From Marsupella aquatica (lineage: Eukaryota; Plantae; Marchantiophyta): a stretch of 64,000 nt of DNA. The position numbers and the translations under genes are program-made. The stretch is from assembly GCA_973895155.1 (NCBI GenBank), contig OZ316899.1, positions 14,905,874 through 14,969,873 of the forward strand, read 5' to 3'. Of this stretch, positions 5,473-49,283 are shown piece by piece (position 1 is the stretch's first letter; each line of letters begins with the position of its first letter). The notes beneath the pieces were generated by a model. It saw nothing but the letters and a program-made list of their open reading frames with translations. It did no database searches and was not told the origin of the DNA.

Positions 5473-5486
5473 CGTTATCAGCGCGA
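5473..5486 (+). promoter_or_regulatory. Primer-binding site of the half-tRNA type (anticodon arm of tRNA-Ile)
   Basis: CGTTATCAGCGCGA directly follows the LTR and has no TGG. It is complementary to the tRNA-Ile(IAU) anticodon arm UCGUGCUAAUAACG (recalled sequence), allowing I:C and G:U pairs. Confidence 0.7.
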
Positions 5487-18752: not shown

Positions 18753-18776
18753 ATTTATCTTTGGCATAGCAGGAGG

Positions 18777-22481: not shown

Positions 22482-22486
22482 ATTAT

Positions 22487-25140
22487 ACTTGCCTGAGCTG
22501 CAATCGGAGGCGGAGTTGGCAGAGGTACGTGTGGCCAGAGACAAACTGCTTGGCAACACGCGGTTTGCGCTCTCGGGAGCGGTGATTCTGAGGATGGAGA
22601 GTCTCCCGTCATACCAAGAGGTGAAGGAGGTGCTGTGGCTCCTGCCTTGCGACAAAACTCCAGGACCTGATGGCATGACGACTGAGGTCTATAGAGCATG
22701 CTGGGAGTTTCTCGGGCAAGATCTGGTGGATATGATACAGGAGTTCTGGCTTACAGGTGCTCTGGACGCTGGCATTTGTGAAGAGATTGTGAAGTTCATA
22801 CCCAAGAAACCTGACAAAAGATTCTTAAGGGACTGGCGCCCCTTGACAATGTTAAATACGATTTACAAGCTCATTGCCAAGATCCTCCCTATTTGGCTCA
22901 AACCGATTCTACACATGATTATCAGCCCACAACAGACTGGATTTATACCTGGAAGACACATCCTTGAAAATATTTCCCTAGCCTGGCTTACCTGCGACTG
23001 GGTCCATAACAAAAAGAGAGAGACATTGTTCCTTACACTGGATTTTGAGAAGGCTTTTGACCGTGTTTCACATGACTACTTATGGGAATGCATGCACCTC
23101 CTGGGTATCAACGGACGCTTCACTATGCTGGTCAGGGCACTGCTGGCACAGGCGTCTTCCAGAGCCTTGGTGAACGGATTACTATCTAACACATTTGAGC
23201 TTAAACGAGGAGTAAGACAAGGCTGCCCACTGTCACCATTGTTGTTTGTCATCTCCACGCAACCTCTTATGGACTTTCTTGAAACTGAGATGGCGGAGGG
23301 CAGACTTAGAGGCTTATAGATCACCCCGGGATTCACTATCTGCTATAGACTGTTTGCGGATGATGTTGGAATGTTTGTCCCAGCCACAGAGTGCGCCTTT
23401 GAGGAAGCAACCACTGCTCTCAAATGCTATGAGAAGGCGAGTGGGGCCTGACTGAATCTGAAGAAATCCGTGGTGATTCCATTGTCAATGGAACGGATCC
23501 TTGAGTGGCTGAATAACACGGGCTGCCTTATCAGTCAAAGCGGTGAGATGCAGAAATACCTGGGGGCACCATTGGGTGAGAACTTGAGCACGGAACAACT
23601 GCACAAATTCTGCCTTGATAAGAGTTGTGCCAGGCTTTCAGTTTGGTCCAACAAACTCCTTTCCTTTACTGGCCGTTCACTACTGGTCAAACAGGTACTA
23701 CTTGCTATTCCGATCTACCGTGTCATGTATTGCAAGGTGTCCGTTGGCCTGGCGAAGAAGATAATTGCTTTGAGCAGAGAATTTTTATGGGGATACAATG
23801 CCACAAGTGGACGGAAGGTCCCCCTGGTGGCCTGGGATCGGATGGCTTTGCCACGTGTGGAGGGGGGGCTGGGATTCCGGGACTTCCGCTGTCACTCTGA
23901 TGCATTGCTCTCTCAGTGGTTTACTAAGGCACTTAACACGCCTGAGACGGAATGGTCTAGGATGCTGGCAGCCAACCTGACCTTGATGGGTTGGATGAAC
24001 TACAAGATTATTAGGCGCAATGGATACTCCTTTCAGGACCGGCTTCTGTTGTGCATGCCTCGTTCATTTAGTGGGCTGCCATACACGACTGGTCTCTGGA
24101 GAAGCTGGGAGCTAGTGAGAGCCCACTTATCCTTTGATCCTAGCCTGACGTGGCTGCCTTCCCGGTGGAGCATCATGGATACCCTCAGATGTATGGTTGG
24201 CTTTAATTCTCTTCCGAATAAGGCAATCATAGAGATTGCTGCAATTTGTGGCAGGTTGGGATTGAGGTCTATTGGTGATGGATGGTCGATGGAGGATGGA
24301 TGTTGGAAGGACCTCCCGTTACGTTGGCACAACATGCATGGCTTCTCTGAGGAGCATCGAACAATGGCACGCTCGTTCTTGGATTGCCTTTGGCGTGCTA
24401 ATAACTACCGATCTGAGTACTACTTGTATGCCAAGCAATGGAGATGGACAGATCAATCTGAGCCACTGAAGGACTTCAGAATCAAGAATTGTAGAGTGTA
24501 TGACTTCTTAAGGCCTAAGAGTTCTTCCCATGACTGCCTCAATAGGATCTGGTCGTTGTCCTGGCCTGAGATGCGCTGGAATGTGTGCTGGGCCAAGCTT
24601 TGGGGGTCTGATCTTCCAATTAGAGGCAAGACCTTTTTTTGGAGGATCATTGTAGGGGGCCTGTTCACTGGGGCTCGTGCGCTCAGAATGGAGGTTAGTA
24701 ATGGTGATTGCAAGCTTTGTAATGGCTGGCTTGAAACGATCCCCCACCTGTTTTTCCATTGTACACATGCTGTCCGCTGCTGGTGCCTCTGTCAGGCTGC
24801 GTTGAGGAGTCTGGGTTTGCCAATTGGACAAGGATTGATGGCTCTTTTAGAGGCGGCCTGCGGGAAGGAGCATGTTCAAGTGGCTCGGATCTTTGTCTTG
24901 CATCAAATTCTGTGGCGACTCTGGTTGGGAAGGAACACCCACATGTTTCAGCCAGGGGGGAGACGTGTGTTTGACTTAGGGCTGGTTCTGAATGAGGCAG
25001 CGGAGAATGCGTTTGCTGTTAGTTGGCGCTGCCCCCCGGGCAGGAAGTGCACCCGCCTGATTCGGGCCAAGGCATGGATTGATGACCTGCGTAGGGAATG
25101 GCTGGGCAGTGGCAGCACTGCTGTCAACTCTTTTGCTTGA
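22487..25140 (+). pseudogene. LINE ORF2, 3' part: reverse transcriptase plus C-terminal zinc-binding (zf-RVT) domain
   Basis: KTPGPDG, WRPLTMLNTIYK, LDFEKAFDRV, RGVRQGCPLSPLLF, LFADD, KYLGAP, CKLC...ETIPHLFFHC. Stops at 23319 and about 23450. Confidence 0.92.
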
Positions 25141-25889: not shown

Positions 25890-26282
25890 ATGGTGAATCC
25901 ACTTTCATATTTTTTCTTATTCAGATTTTGTGTCCACTATTTTGATTTTAATGTGCCTTGACAAGGTGAATCATTTGTATTAATTTGATTTTGAATTCAC
26001 TTTTGAACCCCTTTTGATTTTAGTGAACTTAGAGTATTTTGAATGTATTTGACTCCCTTCATAAATGTTTAATCTTTTCTTTTCAATAATTCCTTAATGA
26101 ATTCTCTTTTTTCTCATGAGAGTGAGAGAAATGAATTTGAACAATGTGCACATCTGGTGTACTAAGTTCCCCTTGTGGTTTCCTTTACAAAATTTATGGT
26201 TTTAATTGAGTTGACTGTCATTACCTACAAGCAAGTGTACTCTATGTGCACAACTCTTTAGTACCTTTGTACTTTCTTGGTC

Positions 26283-29200
26283 TGTCACACCCAAATGATC
26301 CGTCCTTACATGGATTTTGGCTTAGGCTGGCATAAACTTTGTGAATATTGAGGGTTTGGGCAAGGAGGGATGTGAAAACTGTACTTTATTCTAGTAATAT
26401 AGCGCTAAGTGTGCCCGACTCTACCTATACACGTATCATAGGTATGCTTTGTATTTTGCTGTCGGAACGTACCTTAAGTTGATAGCTCAATTGACCCCGG
26501 CTTAAGGACTTCTAAGCCTTTGTGCTGTCCGCCTGTGATCCAGATCTGATGATACGGGTGGTCAACCCGGGCTCAGAACCACTATCCACAACTAACACCC
26601 CGTGCACTCGCATAATGCATTTGGCCAGGCGATGCTTACCCGTATACAAGATTGACAACTACGACTAGACTTCACAACACAAAATCTTGATTTACATGAA
26701 GGAAATGATGGGGAAAAGACTTTACTTCAGAATCCGTCATACACATACACACGATTGACTTGACTTTCTTCTGAACTAGCAGGCCCAACGGCAACAACTT
26801 GTACACTACAACGGAGCCCGGCTCCGCACTCGCCCGACAAGATTAGTCATACACTCACCCCTTGGTGCTCTCTATTCATGAAGGCCAGGACTCCCCGCAG
26901 ATCCTATGGATACCCGGTTTTGAACCTAAAATCCCCCCCTTGCCTCTACCGGGGGGTGCACTAAATATTGTCTAAGGGCTGCGGCCCGGAATGGCCACGA
27001 TGCCAAATCTAATTTATCCTAAGTTCATCTAATTGTCAGGCCAAAAAATGGCGCGTCCTATACTTAGATTCTGCTCTAATTGGGTTGGCCGGACAAGACA
27101 ATGTTGCTAGCTAGTTTTGGCGTTTGTCTCCAGCGTCCGTCCTTCCAATCTAATCCTGTCTCTACTCTAAACCTACTACCCCACCGCTAATGTCTGGCAC
27201 GCTTGCCAGACCCACCCAAATTGGACCTGGAACAGCCGTCCCGCTATCTTCTCAAACGGTCCATGTCTTGCTTGAGTAGTTGGACTTGATCCAAGAGAGG
27301 CTTGTTCCCTCATTTTGTTGCTTCCGTCTCCTTTGTGGCCTAACATGCCTCTTCCAACTGTTGGGCGTTGCTCGTCAATTGCGCCACTAGTTGGTCTTCC
27401 TTAGTGGCTTCTTGTAGAAGCCATGCCACCTCTACCTTCAGGGCGTCAACCTCCGCCGCATCTCTCTAGGCCCAAGCTTCGGCTTCCTCCAAGTCCTTTT
27501 GCTAGATGACAACTTGTCCTTTCAAGCTATCAATTTGTGTCCAAAGCCACGCAATCTCTACATCCTTTACAGCTCTGGCTTTTGCGGCCAAGGCCGGCTT
27601 GGCTTTGGGTTTGGTGATCTAGGCCAAGGTGGTTGCAAGCTGGGGCCGAAGAAGTTGAAGCTCAGTCTCTCGGGCTGAGGCTTCATTTAATAGTTGGGTT
27701 GCCTCACCTCAATACTGCTTTATTCTTCTTGTGGCTTTGGATTGTGCATGCCCTACCCTCATTGCTGCAACCAGTACTTGGCTGAAGAAGTACGCCACCT
27801 TCCGGGCCATAAACACCCCCACGTCTTGACCAACTTCTACAGAGAAGTTGCCAAGAAACCCATTTAAAAATGTACCCGGAGCAAAGAATTGTGGGTTCAT
27901 AGGTTGTGGCCGCTGGCTCTTGGGCACTGGCCTTCCTCCATCCAATCAGGGGTGGGGTCAGGCAAATCCACCTCTGGGATGGGGGCAGACAAATCCAGCT
28001 CTGGGGTGATTAGAATAGGGACAGGTGGATCTGCTAAGGAGGGGGGTTCCATTGGTGTTGGCGTGGGGGATGGAGGTGCTTCCTTTGTGACCAAGGCCTC
28101 CGGCTCCGGGCCGGCTTCCTCTTGGTTGGGCGTAATGGTTGCCCGCTCTTGAATCTGGGCGTCCAAGGCCGTGATGATTATTGTGTTTGGCAAGGAAGAT
28201 GAAGCCCCCCCAGCTGACTTTGGGATCGGGGCGGGGCTAGGGGCCACGGGCGCCAGGGCCCAGGCCTTGGGTTGGGCTCACCTCGCTTGAGATGGGAATA
28301 CCCACCTGGCCGGGGCAAGTTTGGGCTTGTTGCACCAGGGAAGGGTGCGGCAATCAAATGGGCATACCACTCCATGATGATTTCTATGGGACTTGCTAGG
28401 TACGCCTTTCCCCCAAGGTACAAAGTCTTCCTTCATCGCTCCATCTCCTTGTGGAACTTCTTGACAAAGAATGAAGCCCACTTCCTAGGCCGGTAATTAT
28501 TGACCTTAATCACTTGGGTGGCGGATTTCTCTCCTCGTGGATCCATCATTTGGAGCGCATACCGTTGGAACTCAAGCTGCTCCGCTACCTCTGGGATGAT
28601 GCAAGTCCGCATTAGGAAACCATTGTCCATGGACCCCTTGGGCAAGAAGCTAGCTCAGGAATGGTACTTGGCTCCCTTGCCCCTTGGTGCCCGCAACCCC
28701 ACCCAATCCTTTCCTTTGGGTAAGCCAAAGATGAGCTTTAACCGTGCTTTGTTCAAGGACATTACTCGTCCGTGCGCACGGGTCTATTGATAGGCTTCGT
28801 CAAAGTTTTGAATATCTGTCATATCCTGCCCGTAGTACCTGCAAGTGTTCCAAGGGAGAGTGGAGAGGTGCTCAAACCCTCGGGTCGTTAGGTAACATGC
28901 ATGCTTTGGGTGGAGAATGTTTTTGTGGACATTCTCCCCCATCCAATGCATGGTCAATTTGGCCACCGCGACGGTGGCTACAGGTAAGCCGGATACCAAG
29001 GTTGGCTCCTTCCGCTTCTTACCCCGAGAATAGTTCCCGGGGTGACTTGTTGAGGGGGACATCTCCCCGTCTTCCTTCTCTGGTGGAGACCGTATTGCTA
29101 CTGCCGTACATTAGTACTGGTGCCGGGGCTGCAACCTTCACCGTGTTGTCTACCAGGGCTGCCTCTCGGGTTTGGGCTTGCTGGGATGGTGGCGCGGTAC

Positions 29201-29987
29201 CCACCATGCATTGATGGGTACCCGGTGGATTGCGGACAAGGGGAGGGGGCTCCTCATCCTTCAAGCTCAGGTTGACCGCTTTCACCACGGATTGCACCCA
29301 AGCTGGTGGTGCAACCAGTGGTGGAGAACGGCTCGAGGGTGCTTGAGGTGGCATCTGTGCCTGGCTTGGCTCTAGGGAGTTGGTCGCATATGCTGCTGGA
29401 GGAGGTGCCATGGGTACTGAAGCTGAAGCCGTGTTAGGTCTTGGCTGGGCCAGTGTCCGCGCCTCCGTGAATACGGTGTCAAAGTGATGCCATTGCAAGT
29501 CTATGGTCCCCAAAATTTGGAAGACTTTGTATGCAATGTATGTTGGATCACTAAGGAGGGGCTGGGCTCAAAGCTGATGCGAGGAGTGAACTGGTGAAGC
29601 AGAGGCACGAAAGAGCTTGCCTTTTATACCCCTGCCGTGCGTTGATTGATCGGCCCCTCCTGCTCATGATAGGCCAAGCTTATCATGCCCGAGGCGTACC
29701 GGCCACTCGTTGGGTCCGGGTCAAAGCGTGCCAGAGGCTGCTACCAGTTCAGTTATACGGACCCAAGGTTGACTGCCATAATGCGATGATCCTAATCCGG
29801 CAGTACGTTAGGTGCCGCCCCGCCAGCCTGAGCGTGAACACCCATTATTACTAAACCTGTCCTAAACATCATGACTAGCTAATTTGGTGTCGTTATGCTA
29901 ATAACTACAGATTCCTACATCTACTTCGTACGTGCTTAATATGGATTAGTCGTATTACTGATTACCTGTTGTGCTAGCAGCGTCACA
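26283..29987 (-). mobile_element. 3.7-kb ORF-bearing solo LTR-like unit
   Basis: TGGTC-TGTCACACC...GCGTCACA-TGGTC, a perfect 5-bp TSD. On the minus strand it reads TGTGACGC...GTGTGACA, like the unit at 20043. No internal direct repeats and no gag/pol motifs. Strand given is that of its ORF. Confidence 0.88.
27230..29560 (-). pseudogene. Decayed accessory gene: Pro-rich region, conserved LPW...NGF domain, Pro-rich linker, coiled coil
   Basis: ORF fragments 29019-29513, 28784-29062 (TLPWNT), 28433-28645 (DNGFLMRTCIIPEVAEQLEF), 27897-28247 and 27709-27945. TATAAAAG lies on the minus strand at about 29625. Boundaries approximate. Confidence 0.65.
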
Positions 29988-30832
29988 TGGTCATAATGTG
30001 CTTTTCATGTGTACTTATGGTTTTGTGTGTTATGTGACTCACTCTTAATTAAGAGATATTAGTTTCTTGGCATATACTTTACATGTAACTACTTCTTTTA
30101 TCATAAATTAAATGAATTACATATCACTACAAGACAAAAAAGAGGCATGTTCCAGGATGAACATGTTATATGTCCATGAAGCTCTGATGAAACCAAATAT
30201 GGGGAGTGGATTAAAATAAGATATGTTTAGATATAATTATAAGCTTGGATATTGTTATTTACATTTCTATTCAGAAAATACACTATTAGTAACCAAATTA
30301 TCACTTTTGTCCAAATATTTTTCTTGCCATTAACTGTCACCACTTTTGTTCTAAATATATTTTGTAAGTCGTTAGAGCACTTTTAATTGAAATCTTTGTT
30401 CCATTCTCTCAATGCTCTTCCCCCCAACATAATTACTCTAACCATTTTTACTTTAATAAAAACTTAAATTGTGAATTACATTTAGGTCTTTGTATACCTC
30501 CTTAGTTAGTCATCATGGTAGATTTGAGTAGATTGAGTGTTTTACATTTTACTCATACCACCTCAAATAGTTTTCTCAATAGTAAAAAATAAAATGAATT
30601 TAATTTCCTCAAAAATATTTTTTGTGTTTATAAACCCTTTGAAAGAGGAACATCAAGCAGCGCAATGACTCGTGAACAAAGAAAACAATTTCCACCTGGG
30701 AGGCTAGGGGGGAAATTTAAAGCCCAAATAAACTCAATTTTTTAAATGAATTATAATTTTTCTTCACACTTTATTGAGATTCAAGGGCATTGATACTTTG
30801 TGACACGACTATACAACTTTCAAAAATGTTGT

Positions 30833-31229: not shown

Positions 31230-31718
31230 GACTCCAACACTGAAAGTATGTGGTTCACCTTGTTTGGGCTATGTCCATGGCTGTGAAAGAAATCCAGTAA
31301 TGCAAAATGATTACACCCACCATAGCCAATGTGTTAGAGCTATCCTCAAGAGTGAACCTTCAAGTGTGAGCACAAGTGTTTGTTCCTCTTGTGTATACCC
31401 CCTCTCATGGTCTATGGAAACTTGGAACTCAAACTAGTGCTATCCTAGTCTACTAAAGTCTCGCTAGTACTATAGAAGTATATAGGTTATACTAGAGGCA
31501 TAACCTAACAAATCCCCCTTGACTCTAGTCCTCGGCTAACTATTTGGTAGTGTTGTTTCTAACTATTTGTTTGAATCACTTTGGGAAGTTGTAGAACGTA
31601 AAATAGGGAGTTTTCCCCCTACCTAAGAGCTAACTAGAACTAAGCCGTAGCTGACAAAGTGTCAAATAGACCAGACATACATAGAAATAAACTACCTATC
31701 TAGTACTAACTCTTCTAC
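31230..31718 (-). mobile_element. Copia-like remnant (PPT/3' LTR junction); host of the 31719 insertion, probably continuing at 36792-37150
   Basis: The minus strand reads ACTAGAGTCAAGGGGGATT-TGTTAGG at about 31505-31530, matching the PPT-LTR junctions at 43296-43321 and 58023-58049. Confidence 0.5.
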
Positions 31719-32201
31719 TGTGATGCCTAGCCAGGAATCACTAGGCCAGTTAAAATGGTAAAACCGGGAGTGTACCCTGAAAACACATTAGTATAGTAAC
31801 AAAACAAGAAAAATATAAACAATTAAGGATGACTATGGAACCCAAGCCGAGGCCGGAAGTAAGGATGCCACGGCAGGGAACACGATTAGGGTTAGGGTGC
31901 GCTAAGTGCCGGCGGCTAAGGGTAACCAACGGGAAGGAAGACCAGGCAAGGGGGGGTAAGGACCGATCACAAGGAATGGCGGCTCATTTGCGAAGCACAA
32001 ACTAAGCAGACGATTACGAGAAGCCAACTACTGTCAACTACTTAGGCAAGCACTCTAGGTGGGAGCAGATACCGACTATCAACTCAAGGAGGGTATGAGC
32101 AACGTCAATCAAGGTGCTCATTTCTGGGGATGCCTGTTTGAACGGGCAACTGAGTACAATGGGACCTACAAGGACGAAGAATCAGAAAGGGCAGCTCAAG
32201 A

Positions 32202-35200
32202 ATGGCAGGAGCTCGCTTGACTATGGGAACTGCAGAAGTTTGTCTTCCTAGGAGGAGAACTTATCAAGGCCGAGTTCTTGTGGAATCCTACTACCAATCA
32301 GCTCAACACCTTCTGTTTTGTGAGAACAGAATCGTCGGCATCCGGGAAGCCATCAACCGCTGCAACGACATACACTGGGAGTTGAAGGGTAGCACGGAGG
32401 TGTGGACAAAGGCAACCGTGCTTGGAGAAACATCCACAACAGCCGCTATGAAGAGGAAAGGGTCCAACAACAAAGAGGCCACCCCTGCAAAGAGAACAAG
32501 GTTGGCGGCACCAAGGAAGCCAGCCGAGCAGGGGAGGAGGAGGCAGGGAGAAGCTGAAGAAGAGGAGGTCGACCCAATCAATGTCGTTCCAATGAGGGAT
32601 GACACCTAGAGGGGCTGGGCGTTGACCCTCCCCAAGGAAGTGCAATTATACTTTGCACGAGAGGAGGATGCATGCTTTACAGCTATGCAGACTCAGAAGT
32701 ACCAGGGCTCCATGGCCGGATCTGGCTTGGAAGCCTTCATGAAATTACCGTGGCTAAAGCCGGAGGTGCCGGATTTTGACTTATTAGAATTCATGGAATC
32801 ATGGGGTCCCGAGACAAATTCCACAAGGGTGTATGGGAAGGATTTCTATCTCACTCCCCAGGTGATTGCCGATGGGCAATAAGACCAAAGTAGATACTAA
32901 GAAGACCTTGCCAGACAAGGAGTTCCGATTGTTCCCAGGGCCATCAACGAAGAATGGCTTCTTCCAGAACACCTACACCAACCCGCACATTGGGGAGATG
33001 ATCGCTTTCTTGCGGGTAACCATGCACTGCAACCTGCCAAGGCCAGAGATCGGCAAGGCATAGGTCTACCTAGCGGAGAGGCCAGACCCAAGCCGGGACT
33101 ACAATGGGTACCTCCTCACCCAACTAAAGAAGATCTTGAAGGAGGAACAGCGTGATAGGCCAGGGAAGCGTATCCCGCTTGGTTATCACATGCCGTTGTT
33201 GTGCCGGTATGCTCGGAGTTAGATCTTTGCCCCAGTACTTCCCCTATAGGGAAGGGCACTAGAGGAGGTTCCAAAATAGAGGCCGGTAGTAGAGAAACCC
33301 AACCAGCTTGGCAGTCCTACGGTCGAGCAAGTGTTTAGGCCGAGGACGGAAAACTTGCCGATGCAGCAACCAGGCAGGCAGAATCTTCTAAAATTGCTGG
33401 AAAAGGAAAAGAAGGTTGCAATGGCAACGGCACCAGTACAGGACATTGCTCAAGAGGTGGGCCTAAGCCAACTCACAAGAGAAAACCCCTTTACCGGAGC
33501 CAAGGAAAGAAGGAGGTCGGAACACGAGCTGGGGGTTCGGATGTATGTGGGAGCCGCAAGTCCAGAAGCCAAGGGAGAGCAGCCCAAAGCTCCTGGTCAC
33601 AATAAAGAGAAGGAGAGGACAGTCTGGAAGCCGGAGGAGGAACCAGGACCCGTGAGTTGTGTTCGGCAGGAGGCCGCATTTGCAGGGGTATGGCATGCGT
33701 GACAGTAAACAGGAAACAGGTTTACTGGTACCAGTAAAATTTTTCCTGTTACCAGCAAAAATTTACTGTTACCAGGAAAAATAACAATGTCAAAATATTT
33801 TCTAAAACGTCAAATTTTCCAAAAAAATTTAAATTATAACATTTTTTGGCTAGCTTTGGGCGCTAGCATTACCAGCGCCGGGCGCCATAAAAATTAGAAA
33901 AAATTCGAAGAAAAAAAAAAAAAAAAATTCCCAAAACAAAATTTCAAAAAAAAATTTCAAAAAAATTTTCAAAAAAATTTCCAAAAAAATTACCACTCAT
34001 TTCCTGTTACCAGTTTTTGTTTCCTGTTACTGTTTGCTGTTTCCTGTCGTTTGTAAATACCCCATTTGCAGCAAGATCAGGAGAGGAACGGGGGGAGCCG
34101 GTAGTCCAAGCCGGGGAGGAGGTGGTGGAGGACTACGGCAATCACGACTCCGGCTACAGGTTGGACCATCATGTCCCAAGAGTGAGGACATGTGGCCGTT
34201 TCATCCCCATGCTTCCTACAATAGTTTGAGGGGACCCCAACCAGCAGAGCAGCCCCGAGTCTCCCCCACCAGATGTCGCTCCCCCGAGATTCGATGGGAT
34301 AAAACAGACGGCACAGGAGTGTTAGGAGCGACTCAGGAAGAAGAGGAGGCAGCCCTGGCCAAGGAGAAGGATTTACCTGGGGGAGAATGGCTGGAGGATA
34401 TCTGGCGGCTTGCAGAAAGATGAAGCAGCCCTCCATCCACGATAGAAGAGGTCCAAAAGGCGGCTTGGGAACAATGGCCGCGGTGGGTGATGCCGAAGAC
34501 TACTACTCACTCCACCTATGCGCAAGACAGAGCCATGGAGTACGAGGAGATGTGTGGGGAACTTGCGCTCTCCATCTTTGGGGAGGAGTTGGAGCATGGA
34601 CCTTTTTTCTAGAGGGAGATGTTGGAAAAAATCCGATTGGAGGAAGCGGTGGCTTTGGAAAGGATGAAGAAGGATGAGGTCATCCGACGGCTTAGGGAGA
34701 AGGAAGCCAAGGTAGAAGACCTGAAGGCGGCCAAGAAAGTCCAAGATGAGCTACGGATTAAGCGGCATGAGCTCAACATCATGCAGGGGCAACTGGATAC
34801 CGCTCAGTCTGATAATCAAATTATCAAGGATAAACTGACTCGGACCCAAGGGGAGTTGGCCGATGCGGTCAAGGAAAAGGAGAAATGGAAACGGGAGTTG
34901 AAGGATGCAGAGCCCACATAGCAACCAACAATCAGGCCATGGCAGAGACACAGAGGAAGGAGAGGGCGCTGAAGGGGGAGCTCAAGGATCTCCGCGGAGC
35001 CCTTGAGCAGAAGGAGGCCGAGTTAGGGAAATCCTATCAAGGGATTATTGTGCTACAGCAGGAGCTTGCATCCCTGACGGCCAGCTTCAAGGCCGACCTG
35101 CGTAAGAAGGACGACATGCTCGATCAGACTTACGCCAAGATGAACCAGATGGAGTCTGAGGTTGTCCAAGAGCTCGACAAGGATCTGAGAGCAACCCAGG

Positions 35201-35886
35201 AAGAGAGGGCTGCCTTGCAGAAGGAATTAGAGGAAGTGCAGAAGGAGCTAGAGAAGGCGCGCGGGGACCTGGACAAAACGCAAGAGGAGTTGGAGGAAAG
35301 CACCTAGAAGCTGGAGAACTTACAACGGCGAGCCGACAACCAAATGGAGCGGCTGAAGAAACAAGCCGCAGTATTTAAGTGCTTGGCCTCATCAGTTCAA
35401 ACTCCAATTATGGCAACAAAGTTGCCAAGGGTAGTACTGGCCGAGGGACAAGCCGCGGCACTCGCAATGGTGCTGGAGGTAAGTGGCAAGGGGAAGGGAC
35501 CAGCTGCCAAACAAGGGAAGAAGAAGAAGCAAAAACCTTCCGGGTTAGGGAGCAACACGGCTTCTCAAGCCACCCTGACCAAGGAGGAGAATACGGCACC
35601 AGCCTCAAGCAAGGTCACGGTAGAGGATTCAACTGTCCTAGAAGGCGGGGATGGCAAGGCCGAGGCTGGGACGATCATTGATGAAGCCGGGGTAGCGGAT
35701 TCACCACTAGAGCAAGCCGGGGAGGCCGTAGCCAAAGCTGAGGCCAAAGCCAAGGGTGGACCCGATCAGGCCGCAGGAGAGTTGACTCGGTCTGGGGCAG
35801 GTAATCTGTTAGAAGACGGACCTACGGCAGTGGTTGCAGAGGAAGCATTGGGGGCGTCCATTGAGGATCAGCCACCGCTACCATGA
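32202..35886 (+). pseudogene. Decayed large accessory gene (about 1100 codons): basic N-terminus, plant-transposon-type domain, long coiled coil, acidic tail
   Basis: Collinear fragments including KRKGSNNKEATPAKRTR, KLPWLKPE..LLEFMESW..VYGKDFYLTPQVIA and KNGFFQNTYTNPHIGEMIAF, then a heptad region closely matching the intact 631-aa ORF at 62028-63923. Confidence 0.85.
33686..34062. mobile_element. MULE-like MITE, copy 1 (377 bp)
   Basis: 9-bp TSD CATTTGCAG; termini GGGTA...TACCC; subterminal CAGGAAACAG/TTCCTGTTAC repeats. Absent from the homologous ORF at about 63850. Confidence 0.88.
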
Positions 35887-37170
35887 CGGTGGTGGAGGGC
35901 CGCTCCTTTTAAGGAGGGCAAACATGGAGGGAGGAGGCGTGAGTGGGCAAGGCGGGTGCAAATCTCCAAGTTTAGAATTAGGATCAGGACCAAGAGGCGG
36001 CCCTGACACTTAGATTAGTGGGATTGCGGATCTGTTGGTAAGAGCAACACTTGTGCTCTTGCCTCGCTGTACATAGGTAGATTATAGATATGATAGATTA
36101 GGCTTACGCTGCAAGGAATTAGGAGGATCCACTGCCAGGATAAGTACCTGGGCAGCGGGGAGTTCAGGGTCTTCTTCTTTAGCAAGTTTTTAGTGCACCA
36201 ACAGGGTTGGGATCAAGTAGTAGAAGAAGCTCTCGGTTAGTTATACAGTGACCCTTGTGTATATTCATGTTTCCTCATGCCTAGGAGCTGAATAGAGTTG
36301 GCCTCATGGCTTAGTTTGCATATCTTGTGTATGAGAAGTAATGTTTGTATGGCAAGTGCATGGTATAACTCAGTCAAAAGAAGTCATTTTGCTATTTGTG
36401 TGTCGCATTAACTTGTTTGAAGATTGCCCACATCAACCAAGAGAGAAGGGAAGTAAGCAAAGTAGTAAGAGTTGGATGTGTCAAGCTGAGAGAGGTCTTA
36501 GCAGCTAACCCAAGCCAATTGGGGATCATTCCGGTGGCGGAATCCAAACATACCTAAAGGGAGACCAGGGGAGGAAGACAAGGGAAGGCATAGAATAGGC
36601 CGGCTACTTATCTCATGACCCGATGAAGGATCTGTCCAGTATATGTGTGTAAAATGTTAGTAGAAGAGAGTTAGCAGCGTCCCATGCCGATAAGCCGCGG
36701 AACCAGCCTTGCCAAGAGCAAAACCTATAGGAATCGGCTTGTGCAGGGGGGTTTCTTGGATTTAGGGAGCCATGGGACGCACCACATCTACCCATATGTA
36801 TCTCCTTGTAAAATTCTAGACAAAAAACCTATGTTTACCCCTTTTTATGAGGGTTAACTAGAATTAGATAGTAGTTGATACATACTTTTAGGTATGTACT
36901 CTTACGTCTAGGTTACAACATGTAACTATAGTTAGTCTAACCATAGTTAAAATGTGGTTAGGTTAACTAAGTTGCACACTATATCCTAAGCAGCATTTTC
37001 TAGGATGAGTGGAACTAAGGCTCAATGTTACGGAGCCACTTGAGAGATAACAAGAGCTTACACTATGGAGACTTGGTATGGCCAACGGGCTTAGAGTTCA
37101 ATAAAGCTCACTTGTGTATTCCCGTGAATGTAGCCTCAAGGAGGTGAACCCTAAAGGGGTGCCATGGTAG

Positions 37171-37857
37171 GGGTGCCATGGGTTCTCGGGGTTTGCGGGG
37201 GCTATCTTGCCCCCGATCTTGCCCACTTGCTAAATCCTATCAAAATAACAGCCAAGCCGCGTTAAGGGAGCTTGTGTTGGGGAGGCAAGGCCAAGTAGGC
37301 ATGGAAGTTGAGTTCCAAGTGCACTTGGCCCCTAGGCTATCAGTGGGGTGAGAACCAAGATTTGGTTGCTAGAGTCAGGACTATTCTGGTCCCGACGTGT
37401 TGGGACAAGCTTTAGGACAAGCTACTCTATTTGGGCCATGAGCAGGTCTTGGAGGTAGGGCAGTCAATTGGTTATGGATAGGTACAAGGGAGAACCCTGG
37501 CTGCACCCAAAAAAGGGTTGTTTTGGATGAACAGTGGGTGTTGACTCTGGTTCCAAAGAACCTATCACTGACCTACTTACTAATGTTTGTTGAGCTTGAG
37601 TTAGGATGCTAGACTTGAGAAGATCTATATCCTGTTGGGTTACTTATCAGGGTACTTGGTTGCTTGTGTAGATAGTAAGGACTGCTGAGCAACGATCATG
37701 TTAGGGGGCAAGTGCAGCTTTGTATGGGAGTGATTGTCGGGGGTGCAAAAGGCACCAATTTGCTTGCTCAGGGAGTTCCATAGAGGCGTTTAGGCACCAA
37801 GGGCACTTAGGCGTGGGTGTTGGAATTGGTGAGGGCGCTGGGTGGCAAGGTCCACTA
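37171..37857 (+). mobile_element. 5'-truncated copy of the family A (AGT..ACT) LTR; a copia is inserted in its last few bases
   Basis: Collinear with 13235-13920 and 47170-47870. Confidence 0.85.
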
Positions 37858-39204
37858 TGTTAGGAATTGACTCGAGTTCCCGACTATAGTTAGTTTGGCC
37901 TGGTTAATTGACCCTTGGTTAGTTTAGGGTAAGGTCCACTTATTTAGACCCACACATCCTAGTCCCCCTTGGGGGGTATAGGTTGGAGGGAGAGCATTCT
38001 CTCCCTCATTCTTCACATGTTCAATCTCATGAGCTATGGATCCTTCAGGAGTTTCTCCATGATCGTGGTGTCTTGTTGGTGTAGTGTGAGATTGAGTGCT
38101 CTCATGTTCCACATTGCTGTCTAGTCTGGAGCTGACAGTTTTCCTACAAGTGGTATCAGAGTTTCGTGTTTGACGTTCGGTTGCCTGGACAGTGGTGAGA
38201 GTGCTCTTTGTGTTGAATTGTGGTGACACATCAGATTGTTTTCAACAATTTGTGTGATTGTGTCACTGGTCGTTGTGCGCTAGAGGTTTTGTGTTCAGAA
38301 GGAGTGACGGTTTCCCAATTGAAACTTCACATCAGAAGTGTCGGATGTGTCTTTGGTTTTCTGAATGTACTGTCAAGCGGACAATCTTGCGTTTCATTGT
38401 GCGCATCGGCGAGCACTTTGTCTCGGTGAAATTTTCACAGCGTTTTATCCGGCAAGTGCGGAGCAATATCGTTTCACGTTTTGCTGTTTATAGCCTAATC
38501 TCTTTGGCTATGGAATCTTTGTGCTTGACTTGATCTCTTACGGGGTCTTGGTTTGATGTTTTCTAGGGAAAACGTTGATGTTCTTTTTTTTCTTCGTGGT
38601 TTTTCTCAATTTTTTCTTCGTTCACCTCTTGGGTCGCGTTGCACAACAATTTGTGGCGACACCGACAATTTGTGTGGTGAAGTACGAGTGGATTACGTAG
38701 CCGCCGGGCACTGTAGTGGTGAGGTGTGGTTGTTACTTAGGGCAAACAGAAAATGACAAGTGAATAGTGATTTTGTCCAGAAATCACGTCGTGTTTAGCG
38801 CTTGTTCTGAGTGGTGGTGAGAAATTTCACCCGCAAAACACTATTCCGTTGCAGCTCAGTGGTGGTGAGACAGTCTTCCGTGGAACACTGTTCCGTCGCG
38901 GTTTGTTGGTGGGAAAAAACAGTACCCACGGAACACCGTTCCGCGGCAATTTGGCGGTGGGAAAAAAATAGTGACCCACGAAACACTGTTTTGCGGGTGC
39001 TTTGAGGAGGAGAAAAAAACCTTTTTTCTGGATAACTTTTTTCAGAAACAGTTTTTTGCCAAATTGTTTTCAGATATTGGTAGTGTACCTTGCAGGCTAC
39101 GCGGTGGTGCATTACAGTTCCACTTTTGCCAACTTTCATTTTTTGGTGATTGTGTGTAGAGGTATTTTGGTACTTGTGTTTCCTGTGTGTTTGTGTCAGC
39201 ATCA

Positions 39205-42200
39205 ATGATTTCAAGAAAGCTTGCGGCGCCAAAGTTTGAGGTGGAAAAGTTTGATGGGAAGGTCAGCTTTAGCCTCTGGACTCTGAAGGTGACCAACGTG
39301 TTGATCCAGCAGGGTCTTGAGAAGACCATCACTGGAGTGAAGCCCTCGACTCTTACAGATGAGGAGTGGGAAGACATGTCGGTGTAGGCGTGTAGCACAA
39401 TTGAGTTGTTCTTGGCAAACAACATTCTCAAGAACGTGTTGGGGATGGATCGTAACGCCAAGAAAATTTGGGATACGCTTACTCAGCTATACCAAAGTAC
39501 TTCATTGAGTACTCGCATTTACTAGTTGGAGCGGCTATTCAGGTTGAAGTTGGAGGATGGTGGAAACATGTGTGATCATCTTAGTCTCTTTGATGAGATT
39601 GTGCACGAGGTGACCACGGCAGGAGATAAGTTGACTGATGTGTACCTTGCAATGCATTTGTTGATGTTGCTTCCGAAGAGCTTTTTGACGTTGGTAATGG
39701 TCATCGCGCATGACAAGACTACATTGAAGCTGGATGCGATGAAGGCTACTATTCTTGCAAAATGGAGCAAGCGACATCTATCTTCCCGTGATGATGACTC
39801 TGCTGCCTTAATGGTTAGAGGTAGATTCACTAAGCGTACTACGGATCAATCTAGATCTAGATCTCATAACAGATCTAAATCTAAGTCCCATAGTAAGAAG
39901 GTTCAGTGTTGGCATTGCCATGAGAAGGACCACACCAAGTGGTCTTGCCCTTCTTTAACCAAGCAAAAGCGTCCTGCTTTTGATGGTGCATCTTCATCTT
40001 CAGCTGGCATTGTCATTGTTGATCATGAGGATGGTGCTAAAGTGCTCTGTACTGGTGCTATTAATTCTGTGTATGACAATAAATGGATGTTGGATTTGGG
40101 TTCCTTTTATCACGTGTGTCCAACGCAATCTTATTTCTCTACTTACCAACCGTGTACTGGTAGCGTGGAAATCGGCAACGGGGTTTGATGTGAGATTGTT
40201 GGCATGGGGACTATCAAATTCCGGATGTTTGATGGTGTTGTGCGAGCATTGACGGAAGTCAGGCACATACCAGACATCTCTAAGAACTTGATTTCTCTTG
40301 GTGCTTTGGGAGCTGGTGGATATCATTTCACTGCACGTGATGGAGCACTCTTTGTTGTCAAAGGTGAGGTATCTTTGATTAAGGCGCTCCGACAAAATAA
40401 TTTGTACATCTTGCAAGGAGATGTCATTGCTCCTAAAATGGAGCATGTGGACTCTGTGGTGGAACGTTTGGATGCAATGGCATCGTTGGTTGCTTCAATT
40501 GAAGCACCATCAACATCTGGTCGCACACAGGCCATAGGTTTATGACATGCACGTTTGGGGCACTTGAGTGGTAAAGGATTGGCAGCCTTGGCAAATAGAG
40601 ATTTGCTGCAAGGCGCACAATCTGGAAAACTTTCTTTCTGTGAAGATTGCATCTATGGCAAGCAGAGGAGAGTGAGTTTCAGTTCTAGTTCCTACCATTC
40701 TCATGAGATTCTTGAGTATGTCCATTCGGATGTTTGGGGTCCAACGCCGGAGCCGTCGTTAGGTGGAGCTAGATATTTTGTGACATTTGTAGATGATTAT
40801 TCTTGAATGTGTTGGCTGTACTGCCGGAGCCGTCGTTAGGTGGAGCTAGATATTTTGTGACGTTTGTAGATGATTATTCTTGAATGTGTTGGCTGTACTA
40901 CATGAAGGAGAAGTCTCAAGTATTTGAGATCTTCAAGGAGTGGAAAGCCATGGTGGAGCTACAAACTGGGAAGTGTGTTTGGTTAGATAACGGTGGCAAG
41001 CATAAGTCCAATGAGTTTGACCAATTTGGTCGGGACCTTGGCCTCAAACATCATTACACTGTACCGGAGACTCCGCAGCAGAATGGAGTGGCAGAATAGT
41101 TGAATCGGACATTACTGGAGAAAACACGCAGCATGCTATGTAGGTCCAAGTTGCCCAATAATTTTGGGGCTGAAGCTGTCCACCAAGCTGCATACATTTA
41201 CAACTTGTCATCACACAGTAGTAAGTTGATGCAGACTCCATTTGAGTTGTGGTATAAGAGACCTGTTGATTACTCTAGACTCCGAGTTTTTGGGTGTGCT
41301 GCCTATGTTCACATTGAGCAGACACACAGGTCTAAGTTGGATCCCAAGTCTAAGAAATGTATTTCTCTAGGCTTTAGTCCAGGGCAGAAGGGCTACAAAT
41401 TGTGGGATCCTATCGATTGCAAGGCAGTTGTGAGCAAAAATGTTGTTTTTGACAAAGAATTGTTGTCAAGAACCCGGGATGATCAGGAGGAGCAGGTGGA
41501 GGAACCCACTACGATGGAGCTTGATGGTGTTGAGGAAGCTGTTGGTTCCTTTGGTAGAGGTGCAGTTCCTCAATTAAGGCGATCCAATCTTGGCCAACCC
41601 TTGATAGATTTGGTTTTGCAGATCCTCGTGTTCATGTTGTTGAGCACAACGATGATCCCAGTGTTATATTGCTCACTGAAGATGGAGACCCCTCTAGCTA
41701 TGAAGAAGCTATGGCCTCTCCAGAGAAGGATAAGTGGATGGAGGCGATGTTGAAGGAGATAATTTTTTTGAAGAAGAATTCAACTTGGCGCTTAGTGGAC
41801 ATGCCTCGCGGGAAGACACTGGTTCTGTGTAGATGGTTGTACAAGAAGAAGCAGGATGGCACTTACAAGGCACGCCTTGTGGCCAAAGGGTACACCCAGA
41901 AGGAGGGCTTGGACTACACGGAGATTTTCTCACCAATTGTCAAACTCGCTACTATTCGTGTTTTACTTGCAATTGTGGCATTCTATGATCTTGAGTTAGA
42001 TCAAATGGATGTAATATGGATTGCTTGATGTGGAGATTTATATGGCTCAGCCTCTTGGTTTTATTGACGAGAAGACTAGACACTTGGTGTGTCAGCTCTT
42101 GCGCTCGTTATACGGATTGAAGTAGAGTCCCAGACAATGGAATGAGCATTTTGATTCCTTCATGTTATCACAGGGGTTCATACGGAGTGAACATGATTGT

Positions 42201-43247
42201 TGTATTTACATGAAAGAGGTGGAGAATTACTCACACTTTGGTTACATTGTGCTGGCATTGTACGTGGATGACATGCTGATCTTGGCTGAGAATAAGTCTA
42301 ATGTTGCCCATCTGAAAGCAATGTTGAGTAAGGAGTTTTCAATGAAGGACTTGCGTCAGGCCAAGAAGATTCTAGGGATGGAGATTCATCATGATAGGGA
42401 GCGGAGGCAATTATGGTTGTCTCAAAGGCAATTTTTAGAGAAAGTACTTGCCAAGTATGGGATGGAGAATGCAAAACCAGTTGGTACTCCATTGACTTCC
42501 CACTTTAAACTCTCAAAGAATGATTGCCCTTCTAGTGAGAGTGATAGACTGGCGATGAAACATGTTCCCTATGATAGTGTTGTGGGTAGTTTGATGTATG
42601 CAATGACATGCACTAGACTTGACATTGCCCACACCGTTAGCATTTTGAGTAGATTTATGGCAAACCCTGGTACACTTCATTGGGAAGCAATGAAGTGGGT
42701 TTTGCGATATCTGAAAGGTACCTTAGATTGTGTGATTCTATTTGACAGTAAAGCATACTCTACATTAGAGTTGGGAGGTTTTGTAGATTCAGATTATGCT
42801 GGTAACTTGGATAATAGGAAGTCTACTACAAGCTATGTGTTTATGTTGGGTGGAGGTTGTATCAGTTGGAAGTCGGCAACTCAATCCTGTGTTGCATTGT
42901 CTACTACTGAGGCTGAGTACACGGCTATCTACGAGGCAACCAAGGAGCTGATCTGGCTACGGAGATTGGTGAGTGATTTGGGTTTTTCACCTGAAAGACC
43001 GGTGTTGTTGTGTGATAGTCAAAATGCTTTGCATCTGGCTAAGAACCCTGTGTTCCTTGTAAGGACAAAGCACATTGATATTCGTTATCACTTCATCCGT
43101 GAGGTGATTGAGATGAAGCAGATGTTTCTGGAGAAGGTGGCTTTAGAGGAGAATGCAGCAGACATGCTTACCAAAATTTTACCTACCAGTAACTTTAGTC
43201 ATTGTGTGGATATAGTTAATGTTAGGGCCAAACCAGAGACTATATAG
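39205..43247 (+). pseudogene. Copia gag-pol with many stops and frameshifts
   Basis: KFEVEKFDGKVSFSLW, CWHCHEKDH, WMLDLG, VHSDVWGP, TPQQNGVAE, YKARLVAKG, LYVDDMLI, GFVDSDYAG, CDSQNA, NAADMLTK. Confidence 0.93.
40746..40899. repeat. 77-bp tandem duplication inside the integrase coding region
   Basis: GCCGGAGCCGTCGTTAGGTGGAGCTAGATATTTTGTGAC...GGCTGTACT at 40746 and 40823. Confidence 0.92.
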
Positions 43248-43630
43248 ATATGTTACTTAGTTACATATTGTATATCACCTAACTCATTGTATGAACTAGA
43301 GTCAAGGTGGAGATTGTTAGGAATTGACTCGAGTTCCCGACTATAGTTAGTTTGGCCTTACTAGGGTTAATTGACCCTTGGTTAGTTTAGGGTAAGTTCC
43401 ACTTATTTAGGCCCACACATCGTAGTCCCCCTTGGGGGGTATAGGTTGGAGGGAGACCATTCTCTCCCTCATTCTTCACATGTTCAATCTCATGAGCTAT
43501 GCCCGGAGCTATGGATCCTTCAGGAGTTTCTCCATGATCGTGGTGTCTTGTTGGTGTAGTGTGAGATTGAGTGCTCTCATGTTCCGCATTGCTATCTAGT
43601 CTGGAGCTAACGGTTTTCCTACACACAATT

Positions 43631-44662
43631 GGATGACAAAGGGGATGATGCAGTATGGAGCCATCCGACAAAAGGAGTATTGGAATTTTATAGAGTTTTG
43701 CACCAAGTGGGTGATGATTAAGAGCAGATACCATCACACCATATTGCCCAGAATTGCAGTTGCAAGGGCTTTATTTGGAGGAAGTCTTCATCCCCTCCAA
43801 TTATGGAATGCTAATGTGTCCGCTATGATTGATTCAAAGGGAACACCACCAATTTGGCAAAGCTGGTGACTTTTACACAACGCCAAGTGTTTATAGGGAA
43901 GCCGATTTCCAACACTAAGGACCTACGCTACTGGTTAAGGGATTTAAAGGAAACCAAGGCATTGGCAAGAATTGTCATCATGGAGTCCAAAGGCAAGACT
44001 CGCAACTCAGGAAAGCTAAGGGTCGCACAAGAGAAGATTCAGTGGCTCTTTACAAAGTGAAAGGAGAAGGCTTTGGCCAGCAAGGAGACATGAAAGCAGC
44101 TGACAAAAATAGGGTATAGCGACAGAGGCAGGAAACAGGTAAGTAGGAAATTTGTTTAATTCTTGTTTTTAATATGCTATTACCAGCAAAAAAATTTGTT
44201 ACCAGGAAAAATGACAATTTAAAAATATTTCCTAAAAAATCTTATTTTCAAACAAAGTTAAAAATACAACATTTCTTGGCTAGTTTTGGGTGCTACTATT
44301 ACTAGTGCCGGTCGCTAGCAAAAAAAAGTTGTCGACCAAAAAAAAAAGCTTTTTTTCTGAAAAAAAAATCCAATTTTTTTTACCCATTTTCCTGTTACCA
44401 GTTTCTATTTCCTGTCGTTTGTAAATACCTCACAAAGATAGAAGAAGCACTAGACAGAGAGAAGAAGGAGAATAAGGAGGCAAAATCAGCCCTTTAGCAG
44501 GCTCAGGAAGAGGTCCGGACGAAGAAGGCCAGGGTACAATCATTGCGGTCTGAGTTAGGAAGGATCTAGCAAGAGAAGGGGAAGTTGCAAGAATTGTTGT
44601 CCGACAAAGAAGAAGAATGGGGTATGCACCTGATAGCCGCCAAAGATGAGGGGGTGGATTTA
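43631..44662 (+). pseudogene. Fragment of an accessory (domain plus coiled-coil) gene
   Basis: MQYGAIRQKEYWNFIEFCTKWVM..LHPLQLW matches 45636-45800; followed by K/E-rich heptads. Confidence 0.6.
44112..44431. mobile_element. MULE-like MITE, copy 2
   Basis: Homologous to 33686-34062; TSD ACAAAAATA/ACAAAGATA. Confidence 0.82.
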
Positions 44663-46334
44663 TGTCGCACCAACAACCTGGGCCTTAAATCCGGGTTAAC
44701 GCCTTGGGGCGTGCTCAACCACCAGTAAGGGTGAGGTTTTGGACAAGGATGGGTGTAGTGGCCCTGGTTAGTCTATTGGACTATACATATAGCAAAGTTG
44801 TGCAGACCCCAACCTTTTTGTCATTTATAGTAAAGCGCAATTATTATCCTAAAAATGGTTGGGACAACCATAATGGGTACTTAAGGTACCGCCGCCGGTC
44901 TGAACTTAAGGACATTTGTGTAACAATCACGTCAAGTGTTGTGCCTTCACTTGGTAATGATTAGAGGACAATTGTAAATAGCCCCTAGAGTAAAACCGTA
45001 TCTAGGGCCATCTTTAATGGGGCGCTTGACTAAGACACGCTCACGCTCGCACAGCGGAGGGCCGTCCCAACCTTTTGGTCCTTGAATGTCCAAAAGGTTG
45101 GATTTTGCCTCACAAGGCATTTGTGCACTCATTGTCTTTCACTTCCAACAAAAGCATTTGCTAGATTGCCACGCAACTATCCGCTCACTCCCCACTTACA
45201 CTAATAGTTACACCAAGCAAATGGAGGCAACATGAACAAGAAGGGTGGAAGTTCCCCCGACTAGGAACAAGAAGGGAGCTCTCTCTTTGGAAGAGAAGAT
45301 ACGCAACTCCATTGCAGAGGTACAACGCATCAAGGAGAGTTGAGCAATTCTTGACAGAACCATAATTTATGGCATGGTCCGGATGGACCGTTATCTATCA
45401 ACCACTCGAGCAAGAGAAATTTGCTCATAGATTACTAAGGTGACAATGTCACCCAAGGGGATGTTCATTATATACAAGGGGAAAACTAATACTTTCTCCA
45501 ACCCAAAGCTATGCCAGATGTTCAAACTACCTAGGGCGGGAGGATTGCCACTCACGTACCAGGTAGACCCAATCACATTAGAGGGCATGATGGCCTTCTT
45601 ACAACAGACAAAGGTCCGAATAGCCAGGGGAAATATGCAGTATGGGACCATCCACCAGAAGGAGTATCGGAACTTTGTAGAGTTTTGCCCCAAGTGAGTG
45701 ATGGTTAAGAGCGGATACCACACGCCACATTACAAGAATTGTTGTTGCAAGGGCTTTGTTCGTCGGATGTCTCCACCCTCTTCAATTATGGAAGGCAAGT
45801 GTATCCGCCATGATTGATTTGAGGGGCTGTCCAAAGTTCCCCTCACTCATAGCTTATCAGATGGGAAGAATAGTGCATAACGTATTTGGGGTCCAGGAGT
45901 CGCCCAATAGGGCTCCACCGGATGAGTCGGATTTGGGAGAGTCCAAAGGAGAAGATCAAGTAGAAGCCCAATGGACGGCACAAGTGGGGACTGCATTAGG
46001 ATCCACCACCAATGTCAATGTAGATGCCCGAAGTACGACAAGGAGGACTTTGAGGATGACAAAGTGGAGGAGGAGGGGGAAGCACCCCTGAATTTAGATG
46101 CAGAAAGCAAAGGAGGAGCAAAAGCTCTGCGAGCCCTCAGCAAACGGGCCAAACAATGTTATAAGAGTCGCAAGAGAAAGAGGAGGACGGTAAATCTCCC
46201 ACACCAAGACAAAGAAGAAAAATAAGAAGAAGAATAAAGGAGGGAAGCCACCTTCTAACAACCTACGTTGTCCAAATCTCCCGGAGACTATCAACCTGGC
46301 ATACTTAAAGACTTTTGCCCAATGCCTAACTTTT
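44663..46334 (+). mobile_element. Truncated giant-LTR-like unit with a decayed accessory ORF at about 45230-46260
   Basis: TGTCGCACC start with a GAGGTTTTGGACAAGGA motif as in the 26283 and 30833 units; ORF pieces YKGKTNTFSNPKLCQMFKLPRAGG and an acidic/basic tract. Cut by the gypsy at 46335; the other end was not seen. Confidence 0.5.
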
Positions 46335-48894: not shown

Positions 48895-49283
48895 GGTCAA
48901 GTGCAAGCTAGAGGGGTACCAAAGGAGTCCCCAAGGACTAGCTCAAAAAGGAGAGGGGAAGGACTAGAAATGTCATTAAGATTTAGTTGAGCACACTCCC
49001 AAAAAGGTTGGGCACACTTCCAAATAATTGGGGGCACTGCCAACAATGTTGTGCACACTTCCAAAAAATTCGGGCACACTTCTAGAATTCCAAAACATTT
49101 GGACACACTTCCAAATATTTGGCATGCATGATCTAACCTTTCAATCTCACCAAAACAATCCTGGCCATTCCATGTAACATTTTGGTCTTTTTGTCCTCTA
49201 GTGATTGCTTTTACCAAGGACCTATGTCCTTTTGGTGGAGAAAATGGAGATCCTTTCAGTACCCCTCTAGCTTGCACTTGACC
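48895..49283. mobile_element. MITE (389 bp) with a 25-bp perfect TIR at the LTR/PBS junction
   Basis: GGTCAAGTGCAAGCTAGAGGGGTAC...GTACCCCTCTAGCTTGCACTTGACC flanked by TACA/TACA; internal degenerate 21-22-bp GGGCACACTTCCAA repeats. Confidence 0.92.

Follow-up and report, generated by a model that had tools for sequence, protein, structure and literature searches.

The 64,000-nucleotide window analysed here (Marsupella aquatica, GCA_973895155.1, OZ316899.1, positions 14,905,874-14,969,873 of the forward strand; all coordinates below are window positions) is repeat-rich plant DNA with remains of copia, LINE (long interspersed nuclear element) and Ty3 elements. Four units in it are discussed, which we name U1 (31719-36786), U2 (26283-29987), U3 (61116-64000) and U4 (50610-53718). 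U1 is probably a solo long terminal repeat (LTR) from a Ty3/gypsy family of very high copy number; the LTR of this family, about 4.7 kb long, would contain, in sense orientation, an accessory gene for a protein with a predicted VANC/PMD-fold DNA-binding domain and a coiled coil, which would guard the element against silencing. That the gene lies inside the LTR is highly likely for U1 and U3, likely for U2, and slightly less than an even bet for U4. For the encoded protein the predicted fold speaks, by a small measure, in favour of a DNA-binding role on chromatin, and a role specifically against silencing is a tentative prediction. The feature is real: solo LTRs which probably carry an extra gene of their own, with the VANC-like fold as a new lead.

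The ends of U1

U1 has the ends TGTGATGC..GCACCACA (TG..CA) and is flanked by a perfect 5-bp target-site duplication (TSD), TCTAC; its left end and its inverted right end agree in 8 of 10 letters. TG..CA with a 5-bp TSD is by itself a weak criterion, as the window holds 2662 such pairs at 1-8 kb (17 for TGTG..CACA), and family-level tests were made on the Logan contigs of four of the five sequencing runs listed (X1-X4), representing two organisms, one of them perhaps the source of the window itself, and two studies. In contigs of run X4 an empty-site joint leads from 31714 to 36789 across U1, and letters resembling the left flank of U1 stand directly before 36789 in contigs of all four runs. 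Contigs crossing from flank to flank, found for both U1 and U2, support the boundaries beyond what ends and TSD provide; since the flanks of both units are repeats, the empty sites seen are paralogous ones. Inverted end match, perfect TSD and empty site together argue that an integrase treated 31719 as an end.

The preliminary description of a 5.07-kb unit bounded by TG..CA and TCTAC, free of gag/pol and of terminal repeats, is borne out by these data. None of the eight unit fragments scanned with Pfam matches gag or pol, and self-comparison, in which short direct repeats at both unit ends were looked for, found no terminal direct repeats in U1, U2 or U4. The best internal match within U1 is a non-terminal one of 34 bp at 79% (E 0.075), reached by 2 of 200 shuffles and absent against U3. 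The U1 family is very abundant: summed contig depth over U1 stands about three orders of magnitude above that of single exact-match contigs, which is not a copy number.

The right end was studied in contigs of the four runs over 36735-36835, with figures taken from the rows listed. Depth drops 186- to 448-fold across 36786 in every run, and the contigs exiting at this position (14, 13, 20 and 29 per run) agree with one another at 0.37-0.41 and thus represent unrelated flanks. Those exiting at 36787 share TTT-TGGCGCTAGATGGAGG, with four contigs in X1 (agreement 0.79) and 11 in X4 (0.70). This shared motif after the U1-type right end is read as a primer-binding site (PBS), resembling that of Tat/Retand-type loci with one difference. 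A PBS after one end, which had been proposed as a check, is therefore present in other copies of the family, and its place after the right end orients U1 as an LTR on the plus strand with the gene in sense. The primer may be tRNA-Asn. The tRNA-arm pattern was not found in viral contigs, nor a tRNA gene in the window.

A pattern scan of metagenome contigs for CACA, 2-4 bases and a TGGCGCTAGATGGAGG-type motif gave 54 loci, 32 of which have gag within 2.5 kb downstream of the motif (both gag queries were drawn from two of the 54 loci, and seven of the non-matching loci have fewer than 400 bases downstream). In a Pfam scan of ten open reading frames (ORFs) at motif loci, three match Retrotrans_gag and two carry a weak Transposase_28, and one locus has RVT_3 before rve; overall this is a Tat/Retand layout. 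The PBS of the U1 family differs from that of the Retand-type loci in one letter and has a 4-base rather than a 3-base spacer. The exact U1 end sequence did not occur in the metagenome contigs scanned. The PBS motif is also absent from the supplementary text of PMC6317226 in the form available (17,418 characters, perhaps without its large element table), and a literature text search for it yielded 19 papers, all unrelated. On metagenome contig L007 two identical LTR-end/PBS junctions, at 427-449 and 4707-4729, lie 4.3 kb apart, perhaps in a tandem element. Since the 8 of 54 loci with a T variant of the motif resemble GC-rich coding sequence, it was considered whether the PBS-like loose ends came from bacteria; this was rejected because these loci share only about five letters with the U1 end.

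The gene and its predicted fold

The sense gene fills about 74% of U1 when a nested miniature inverted-repeat transposable element (MITE) is set aside, in agreement with the roughly 70% reported before. The MITE itself had been overlooked; contigs of X3 and X4 contain a joint which omits 386 bases, the MITE together with its 9-bp TSD, CATTTGCAG. From the length of this TSD the MITE is presumably Mutator-like. It and its related copy further right in the window both sit within decayed coiled-coil ORFs. U1's own copy of the gene is broken, and its start codon is uncertain, with ATGs at 31829-32095.

U3, presented in the preliminary description as an independent case, proved to be an inverted copy of the 3' 2.76 kb of U1, collinear through gene and end; at 81.6% identity it belongs to U1's own family, and its TSD is unreadable because the window end cuts it. 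A dN/dS comparison among copies, likewise proposed before, gave dN 0.160, dS 0.519 and dN/dS 0.31 for U1 against U3 (bootstrap 0.24-0.40; 589 codons, 5 stop codons excluded), and 0.97 and 1.53 for the other two frames, which shows past purifying selection on the U1/U3 protein. With the PBS after the right end, the end match, the TSD and this selection, the earlier proposal of a gene-bearing LTR surviving as a solo copy gains direct support for U1/U3.

A single-sequence model of the U3 frame has two long helices (223-330 and 339-482) between disordered parts, and about 250 residues of the frame form a long coiled coil. Its Pfam matches are all weak, below the cut-off, and were read as coiled-coil noise; a word-index protein search with the frame found no new relatives among 7996 scored, and in tblastn among the units at E 1e-3 no links appear besides those of U1 to U3 and to the MITE copy. 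No similarity was seen between the U1 gene and the TRP28-like ORF of a metagenome locus (L046), nor a PF04195 match. The in-frame stops listed for the U1 and U4 frames (32607-33277, 51661, 52297) are all TAG (7/7), which would fit C-to-T decay of methylated CAG.

The N-terminal domains of U1 and U2 align better than all of 1000 shuffles. In the corresponding pairwise tests the score of U4 was reached by 290 of 1000 shuffles against U1 and by 103 against U2, and that of an ORF at 45.3 kb by 41-606 of 1000 against every unit, giving no link. The U2 domain, with X at stops, retrieved 14 relatives among 1.84 billion representatives; ten of them were looked up and three could be named, all as unnamed proteins of the liverwort Calypogeia fissa. 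Searched with a hidden Markov model (HMM) built from these 14 relatives, which come from outside the window, U1 scores 4.9e-11 and 0.0047 in two different frames and U4 scores 2.9e-4, with the best reversed control at 0.29 (the score of U2 is circular). With hhalign, U4 matches the domain at a probability of 65.6% over 38 columns. None of the 14 homologues has a Pfam match above the cut-off. A word-index search with a U4 piece gave 0 of 26 and one with alignment A1 returned only its own first row; alignment A2 had no PDB sequence match, and no named viral fold was matched at E 0.001.

The fold was predicted from one homologue, P0009, modelled on 18 sequences with a block pLDDT (predicted local distance difference test) of 61-96 over the domain. 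The top PDB match of this model in Foldseek is VANC21 bound to DNA (9LNJ; probability 0.87, E 0.22), with a template-modelling score of 0.43 over the whole query. VIA-align likewise places VANC21 first (9LNK; Z 7.1, root-mean-square deviation 4.3, 192 residues aligned at 10% identity), with the next match at Z 2.1 and two of 48,161 chains at Z >=2; a Z below 8 may reflect a common arrangement, and the VANC21 match is nonetheless isolated and domain-wide. The Atlas gives DUF1985 (89% of the cluster) and PMD (20%) at 0.88 for the homologue domain, as leads only. The domain of the U1/U2 family is thus predicted to have a VANC/DUF1985/PMD-like fold.

Further units and other content of the window

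At U2 the same architecture had been reported, with the TSD TGGTC, and this is confirmed: contigs cross the empty site in all four runs (joint from 26282 to 30001; 2, 4, 5 and 4 contigs). One end of U2 is identical to the 10-mer printed for the LTR ends of Retrosat2/RIRE8. Its DNA is unrelated to that of U1 and its 3' part holds no run resembling a polypurine tract (PPT), and the two units have a common layout of an end, one TATA match 96 (U1) or 360 (U2) bases in, the gene, about 0.9 kb and the other end.

The case of U4 is mixed. A Met-type PBS does abut it, at 50608 on the minus strand; its ends are AGT..ACT, no TSD is present, and its ORF is antisense and weakly related. LTRs with AGT..ACT ends occur in the window, but with the missing TSD, the antisense gene and the putative far end U4 is a possible LTR only. 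The proposal of several families with a gene in the LTR accordingly stands for U1/U3 and, by common domain and layout, probably for U2; U4 is a possible further case. Other members of the AGT..ACT-ended family lie at 12709-13922 (solo, TSD TTAAC), 46337-47873 and 37168-37855. The copy ending at 47873 precedes a Met-type PBS, and a copia element interrupts its gag-pol remains, which extend as far as about 60700; the reverse transcriptase of this family is chromovirus-like as judged by eye.

Features of the four units in the window
Feature	Positions	Strand	Remarks
U1, probable solo LTR	31719-36786	+	5068 bp, 4682 without MITE; ends, TSD, empty site, PBS in other copies
TATA(A/T)A match in U1	31814-31819	+	sole one on the plus strand of U1, upstream of gene; putative promoter
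Decayed U1 gene	32050-35886	+	stops, frameshifts, MITE; N-terminal domain, linker, long coiled coil, low-complexity tail
N-terminal domain in U1	32682-33210	+	two frames; homologue HMM iE 0.0047 and 4.9e-11; fold via homologue
Nested MITE	33686-34062		377 bp, 9-bp TSD; related copy at about 44110-44430
Conserved non-coding 3' part of U1	35887-36786	+	ends in U5 end; 10% mismatch to U3
PPT-like purine run, then TG	35926-35941	+	just 3' of stop, in U3 as well; vestige or alternative start of the LTR
U2, second family, probable solo LTR	26283-29987	-	TSD TGGTC; empty site
Decayed U2 gene	27200-29500 (approximate)	-	Pro-rich start, N-terminal domain 28361-28957, coiled-coil-like end
TATA(A/T)A match in U2	29623-29628	-	sole one on the minus strand of U2, upstream of gene
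U3, 3' part of further U1-family copy	61116-64000	-	open 656-codon frame 62028-63998
U4, possible 5' LTR	50610-53718	-	AGT..ACT ends, no TSD; putative far end 53718
Met-type PBS abutting U4	50597-50608	-	one mismatch to motif searched
Decayed U4 gene	51120-52740 (approximate)	+	antisense to PBS direction; weak match to U1/U2 domain

Two related decayed ORFs at 43625-46300, each a domain with a coiled coil or an acidic tail, are possibly further accessory genes; shuffle tests and the HMM gave no link between them and the U1/U2 domain. A young copia element (5326-11066) has identical 147-bp LTRs, the TSD ATTAC and a 1321-codon gag-pol frame with a frameshift near 9900. Two copies of another copia family, 85-89% identical, occupy 37858-43623 and 48602-58335; in the second, an inverted-repeat insert (48894-49284) separates the LTR from the PBS, and the leader contains U4 with about 0.8 kb more. 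A decayed LINE at 16689-25140 has DUF4283 in ORF1 and tandem repeats at 20361-20637. The intron-bearing host gene at about 1600-4330 resembles, by eye, one for an SR-type splicing factor with an RNA-recognition motif.

Alternatives, mechanism and relation to known systems

A number of points weigh against a solo LTR with a VANC-fold gene, some of them against the fold and others against the placement. Pfam PF09331 or PF10536 (DUF1985/PMD) is matched by none of the 14 homologues and none of the eight unit fragments. Only one of the five P0009 models is good (mean pLDDT 72.6 against 49.5-55.0), and the fold match was made with the homologue only, at 10-12% identity, a Z below 8 and a Foldseek E of 0.22. 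In seven of seven non-coding stretches no enriched 6-8-mers were found, unlike in VANC targets. As to the placement, the shared PBS row appears in two of the four runs among the rows listed: in X2 the row at 36787 (2 contigs) shows different letters, and X3 has no such row among the six listed. All 32 gag-linked metagenome loci have A where the U1-family contigs have T, and the 8 loci with the T variant have no gag match and resemble chance coding matches. A depth step at the left edge (31713-31747 in three runs, 31616 in the fourth) was rejected as a sign of a family-wide end, since any insertion edge gives one. No canonical poly(A) signal is present in the 3' part of U1. Finally, U1 and U3 share a PPT-like run with TG behind it, directly following the stop, and the 3' 900 bases of U1 are covered about 1-3 times as deeply as the gene, a result that a short LTR would also produce.

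The strongest competitor accepts the LTR placement and takes the protein for an accessory of particle assembly, nuclear import or integration which binds nucleic acid or serves as a scaffold. It is suggested by the extent of the coiled coil, by the absence of target-motif arrays and by a fold identity of 10-12%, a shared fold showing no function; the functions of plant extra ORFs are, moreover, given as unknown in the accessible text of PMC7264820. We consider it rather unlikely, because the one clear match among solved structures is a DNA-bound anti-silencing factor, because a coiled coil is predicted to mediate oligomerisation in VANC as well (PMC13547354, in part), and because Polycomb silencing is counteracted by host PMD proteins with a similar fold, according to the available portion of 10.1101/2024.09.27.615353.

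Alternatively the true LTR could measure about 850 bp (35940-36786), with the gene as an ordinary extra ORF in sense orientation, placed as in Athila after pol and before the 3' LTR, and U1 as an aberrant or deleted insertion. The PPT-like run with TG after the stop of U1 and U3, the deeper and better conserved 3' part, and a left end of U3 which lies outside the window all suit this placement, and sense extra ORFs in this position are common (PMC7264820, as far as its text was available). It is nevertheless improbable: the left end of U1, with its perfect TSD, agrees with the inverted right end, while the internal TG site bears no resemblance to it, and U2, of unrelated DNA, has the same domain and the same TSD-bounded layout without the run, so that two families would need the same accident. 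That the gene is a separate element nested in a few copies of an ordinary LTR is very improbable. Nesting is rife in the window, but gene and ends are covered to a depth of the same order, U1 and U3 run collinear at 82% identity, neither a terminal repeat nor a further TSD was noticed around the gene, and among the joints listed a single contig joins 32663 to 36144. Least credible is the earlier suggestion of single-unit non-autonomous elements mobilised in trans by a retroviral-type integrase, for although the window shows only single units with TSD and most contigs exiting the right end have unrelated flanks, solo LTRs likewise yield such flanks, and the shared PBS after the right end, in 15 contigs from two runs and two studies, largely refutes it for U1.

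If U1 is a solo LTR beginning at 31719, the full element would hold two copies of the gene, and recombination between its LTRs would leave one copy and its promoter behind. Expression of the gene would depend on the only TATA box, close to the left end. Were this box the transcription start, a very long R region would contain the gene, and transcripts terminated within the 5' LTR would be accessory-only messenger RNAs, such as a solo LTR could also produce; if there were a second promoter within the last 900 bases, the gene would instead belong to the U3 region of the LTR. The gene may have entered the LTR when a tract lying upstream of a sense ORF at the 3' side took over plus-strand priming, and the old priming tract would persist as the purine run at 35926-35941; such a route is suggested by reading this run as a relic of the former LTR start. 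The product, as predicted from the homologue, would be an oligomeric DNA-binding protein with a coiled coil, shielding the family from silencing.

A wider scheme, in which several Ty3/gypsy families of an early-diverging land plant moved a VANC-fold anti-silencing gene into the LTR and each solo LTR left by host deletion acts as a self-promoted cassette keeping intact relatives unsilenced in trans, is rather unlikely as a whole. Were it true, the VANC fold of mobile elements would reach far beyond the dicot Mutator elements in age and distribution. A VANC-like fold here also bears on whether the PMD/VANC fold arose in hosts or in Ty3 elements, a point left open in the accessible part of PMC5418596. 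Phrases on ORFs inside plant LTRs occur in passages of PMC1560396 and PMC6673714; no title or abstract opening describing such an ORF was found in the literature searched, which omits most subscription papers. A gene in the LTR would be doubled in each element and would outlive the main route by which the host deletes such elements. A VANC-like fold offers a testable answer to what the extra ORFs of plant retrotransposons do and whether retrotransposons carry anti-silencing factors.

Terminal-repeat retrotransposons in miniature (TRIM) and large retrotransposon derivatives (LARD) are defined by direct repeats at both ends of the unit. The units described here lack terminal direct repeats, unlike TRIM/LARD, and resemble them in the absence of gag/pol, the TG..CA ends and the 5-bp TSD (for LARD: PMC6431247, in part).

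VANC binds short motifs and strips methylation from its own transposons (PMC5735166), and the PMD domains of MAIN/MAIL resemble the DUF1985 domain of VANC (10.1101/2024.09.27.615353; PMC13547354), as far as the available parts of these sources go. Like VANC21/VANC6 (9LNJ/9LNK) and MAIN/MAIL, the U1/U2 family would combine the fold, predicted over about 190 residues, with a coiled coil. VANC is described, in the text available, as dicot-specific, Mutator-encoded (VANDAL) and directed at tandem target motifs; the units differ from it in their LTR carrier, in named relatives which are liverwort proteins, in the 10-12% identity and in that no motif arrays were found.

The extra ORFs of plant Ogre/Tat/Athila and Tekay elements have a PMD-type or SMC-like part in the accessible portions of PMC6317226, PMC7264820, PMC11963269 and PMC3485330; PMD-A is Ty3-encoded (PMC5418596) and is present in 57% of Ogre elements (PMC6317226). 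With these elements U1 shares an extra gene, a 5-bp TSD and a putative LTR length within their range of up to about 5 kb, and the PBS of its family resembles the Tat type. Their ORFs are, in the same portions, internal (before gag, or between pol and the 3' LTR), whereas the U1 gene lies between both att ends; unlike Ogre/Tat/Athila, the units have no Pfam PMD, Transposase_28 or ATHILA match. In Retand the TRP28 ORF between pol and the 3' LTR is antisense, and the U1 gene is instead in sense to the PBS.

The nearest parallel in layout is the sag gene of mouse mammary tumour virus (MMTV), which lies mostly in the U3 region of the LTR, is under purifying selection (0.289) and persists for the most part in sag-bearing betaretroviral solo LTRs (490 of 527 contigs), as given in the available part of PMC4667437. 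As in MMTV, a gene which probably lies in the LTR shows purifying selection and is found in a probable solo LTR, an analogy of layout and not of membership. In distinction to sag, an immune-acting gene in the U3 region of an animal retrovirus, the carrier here is a plant element, with a gene of 2.3-3.5 kb downstream of its only TATA match and with a predicted DNA-binding fold.

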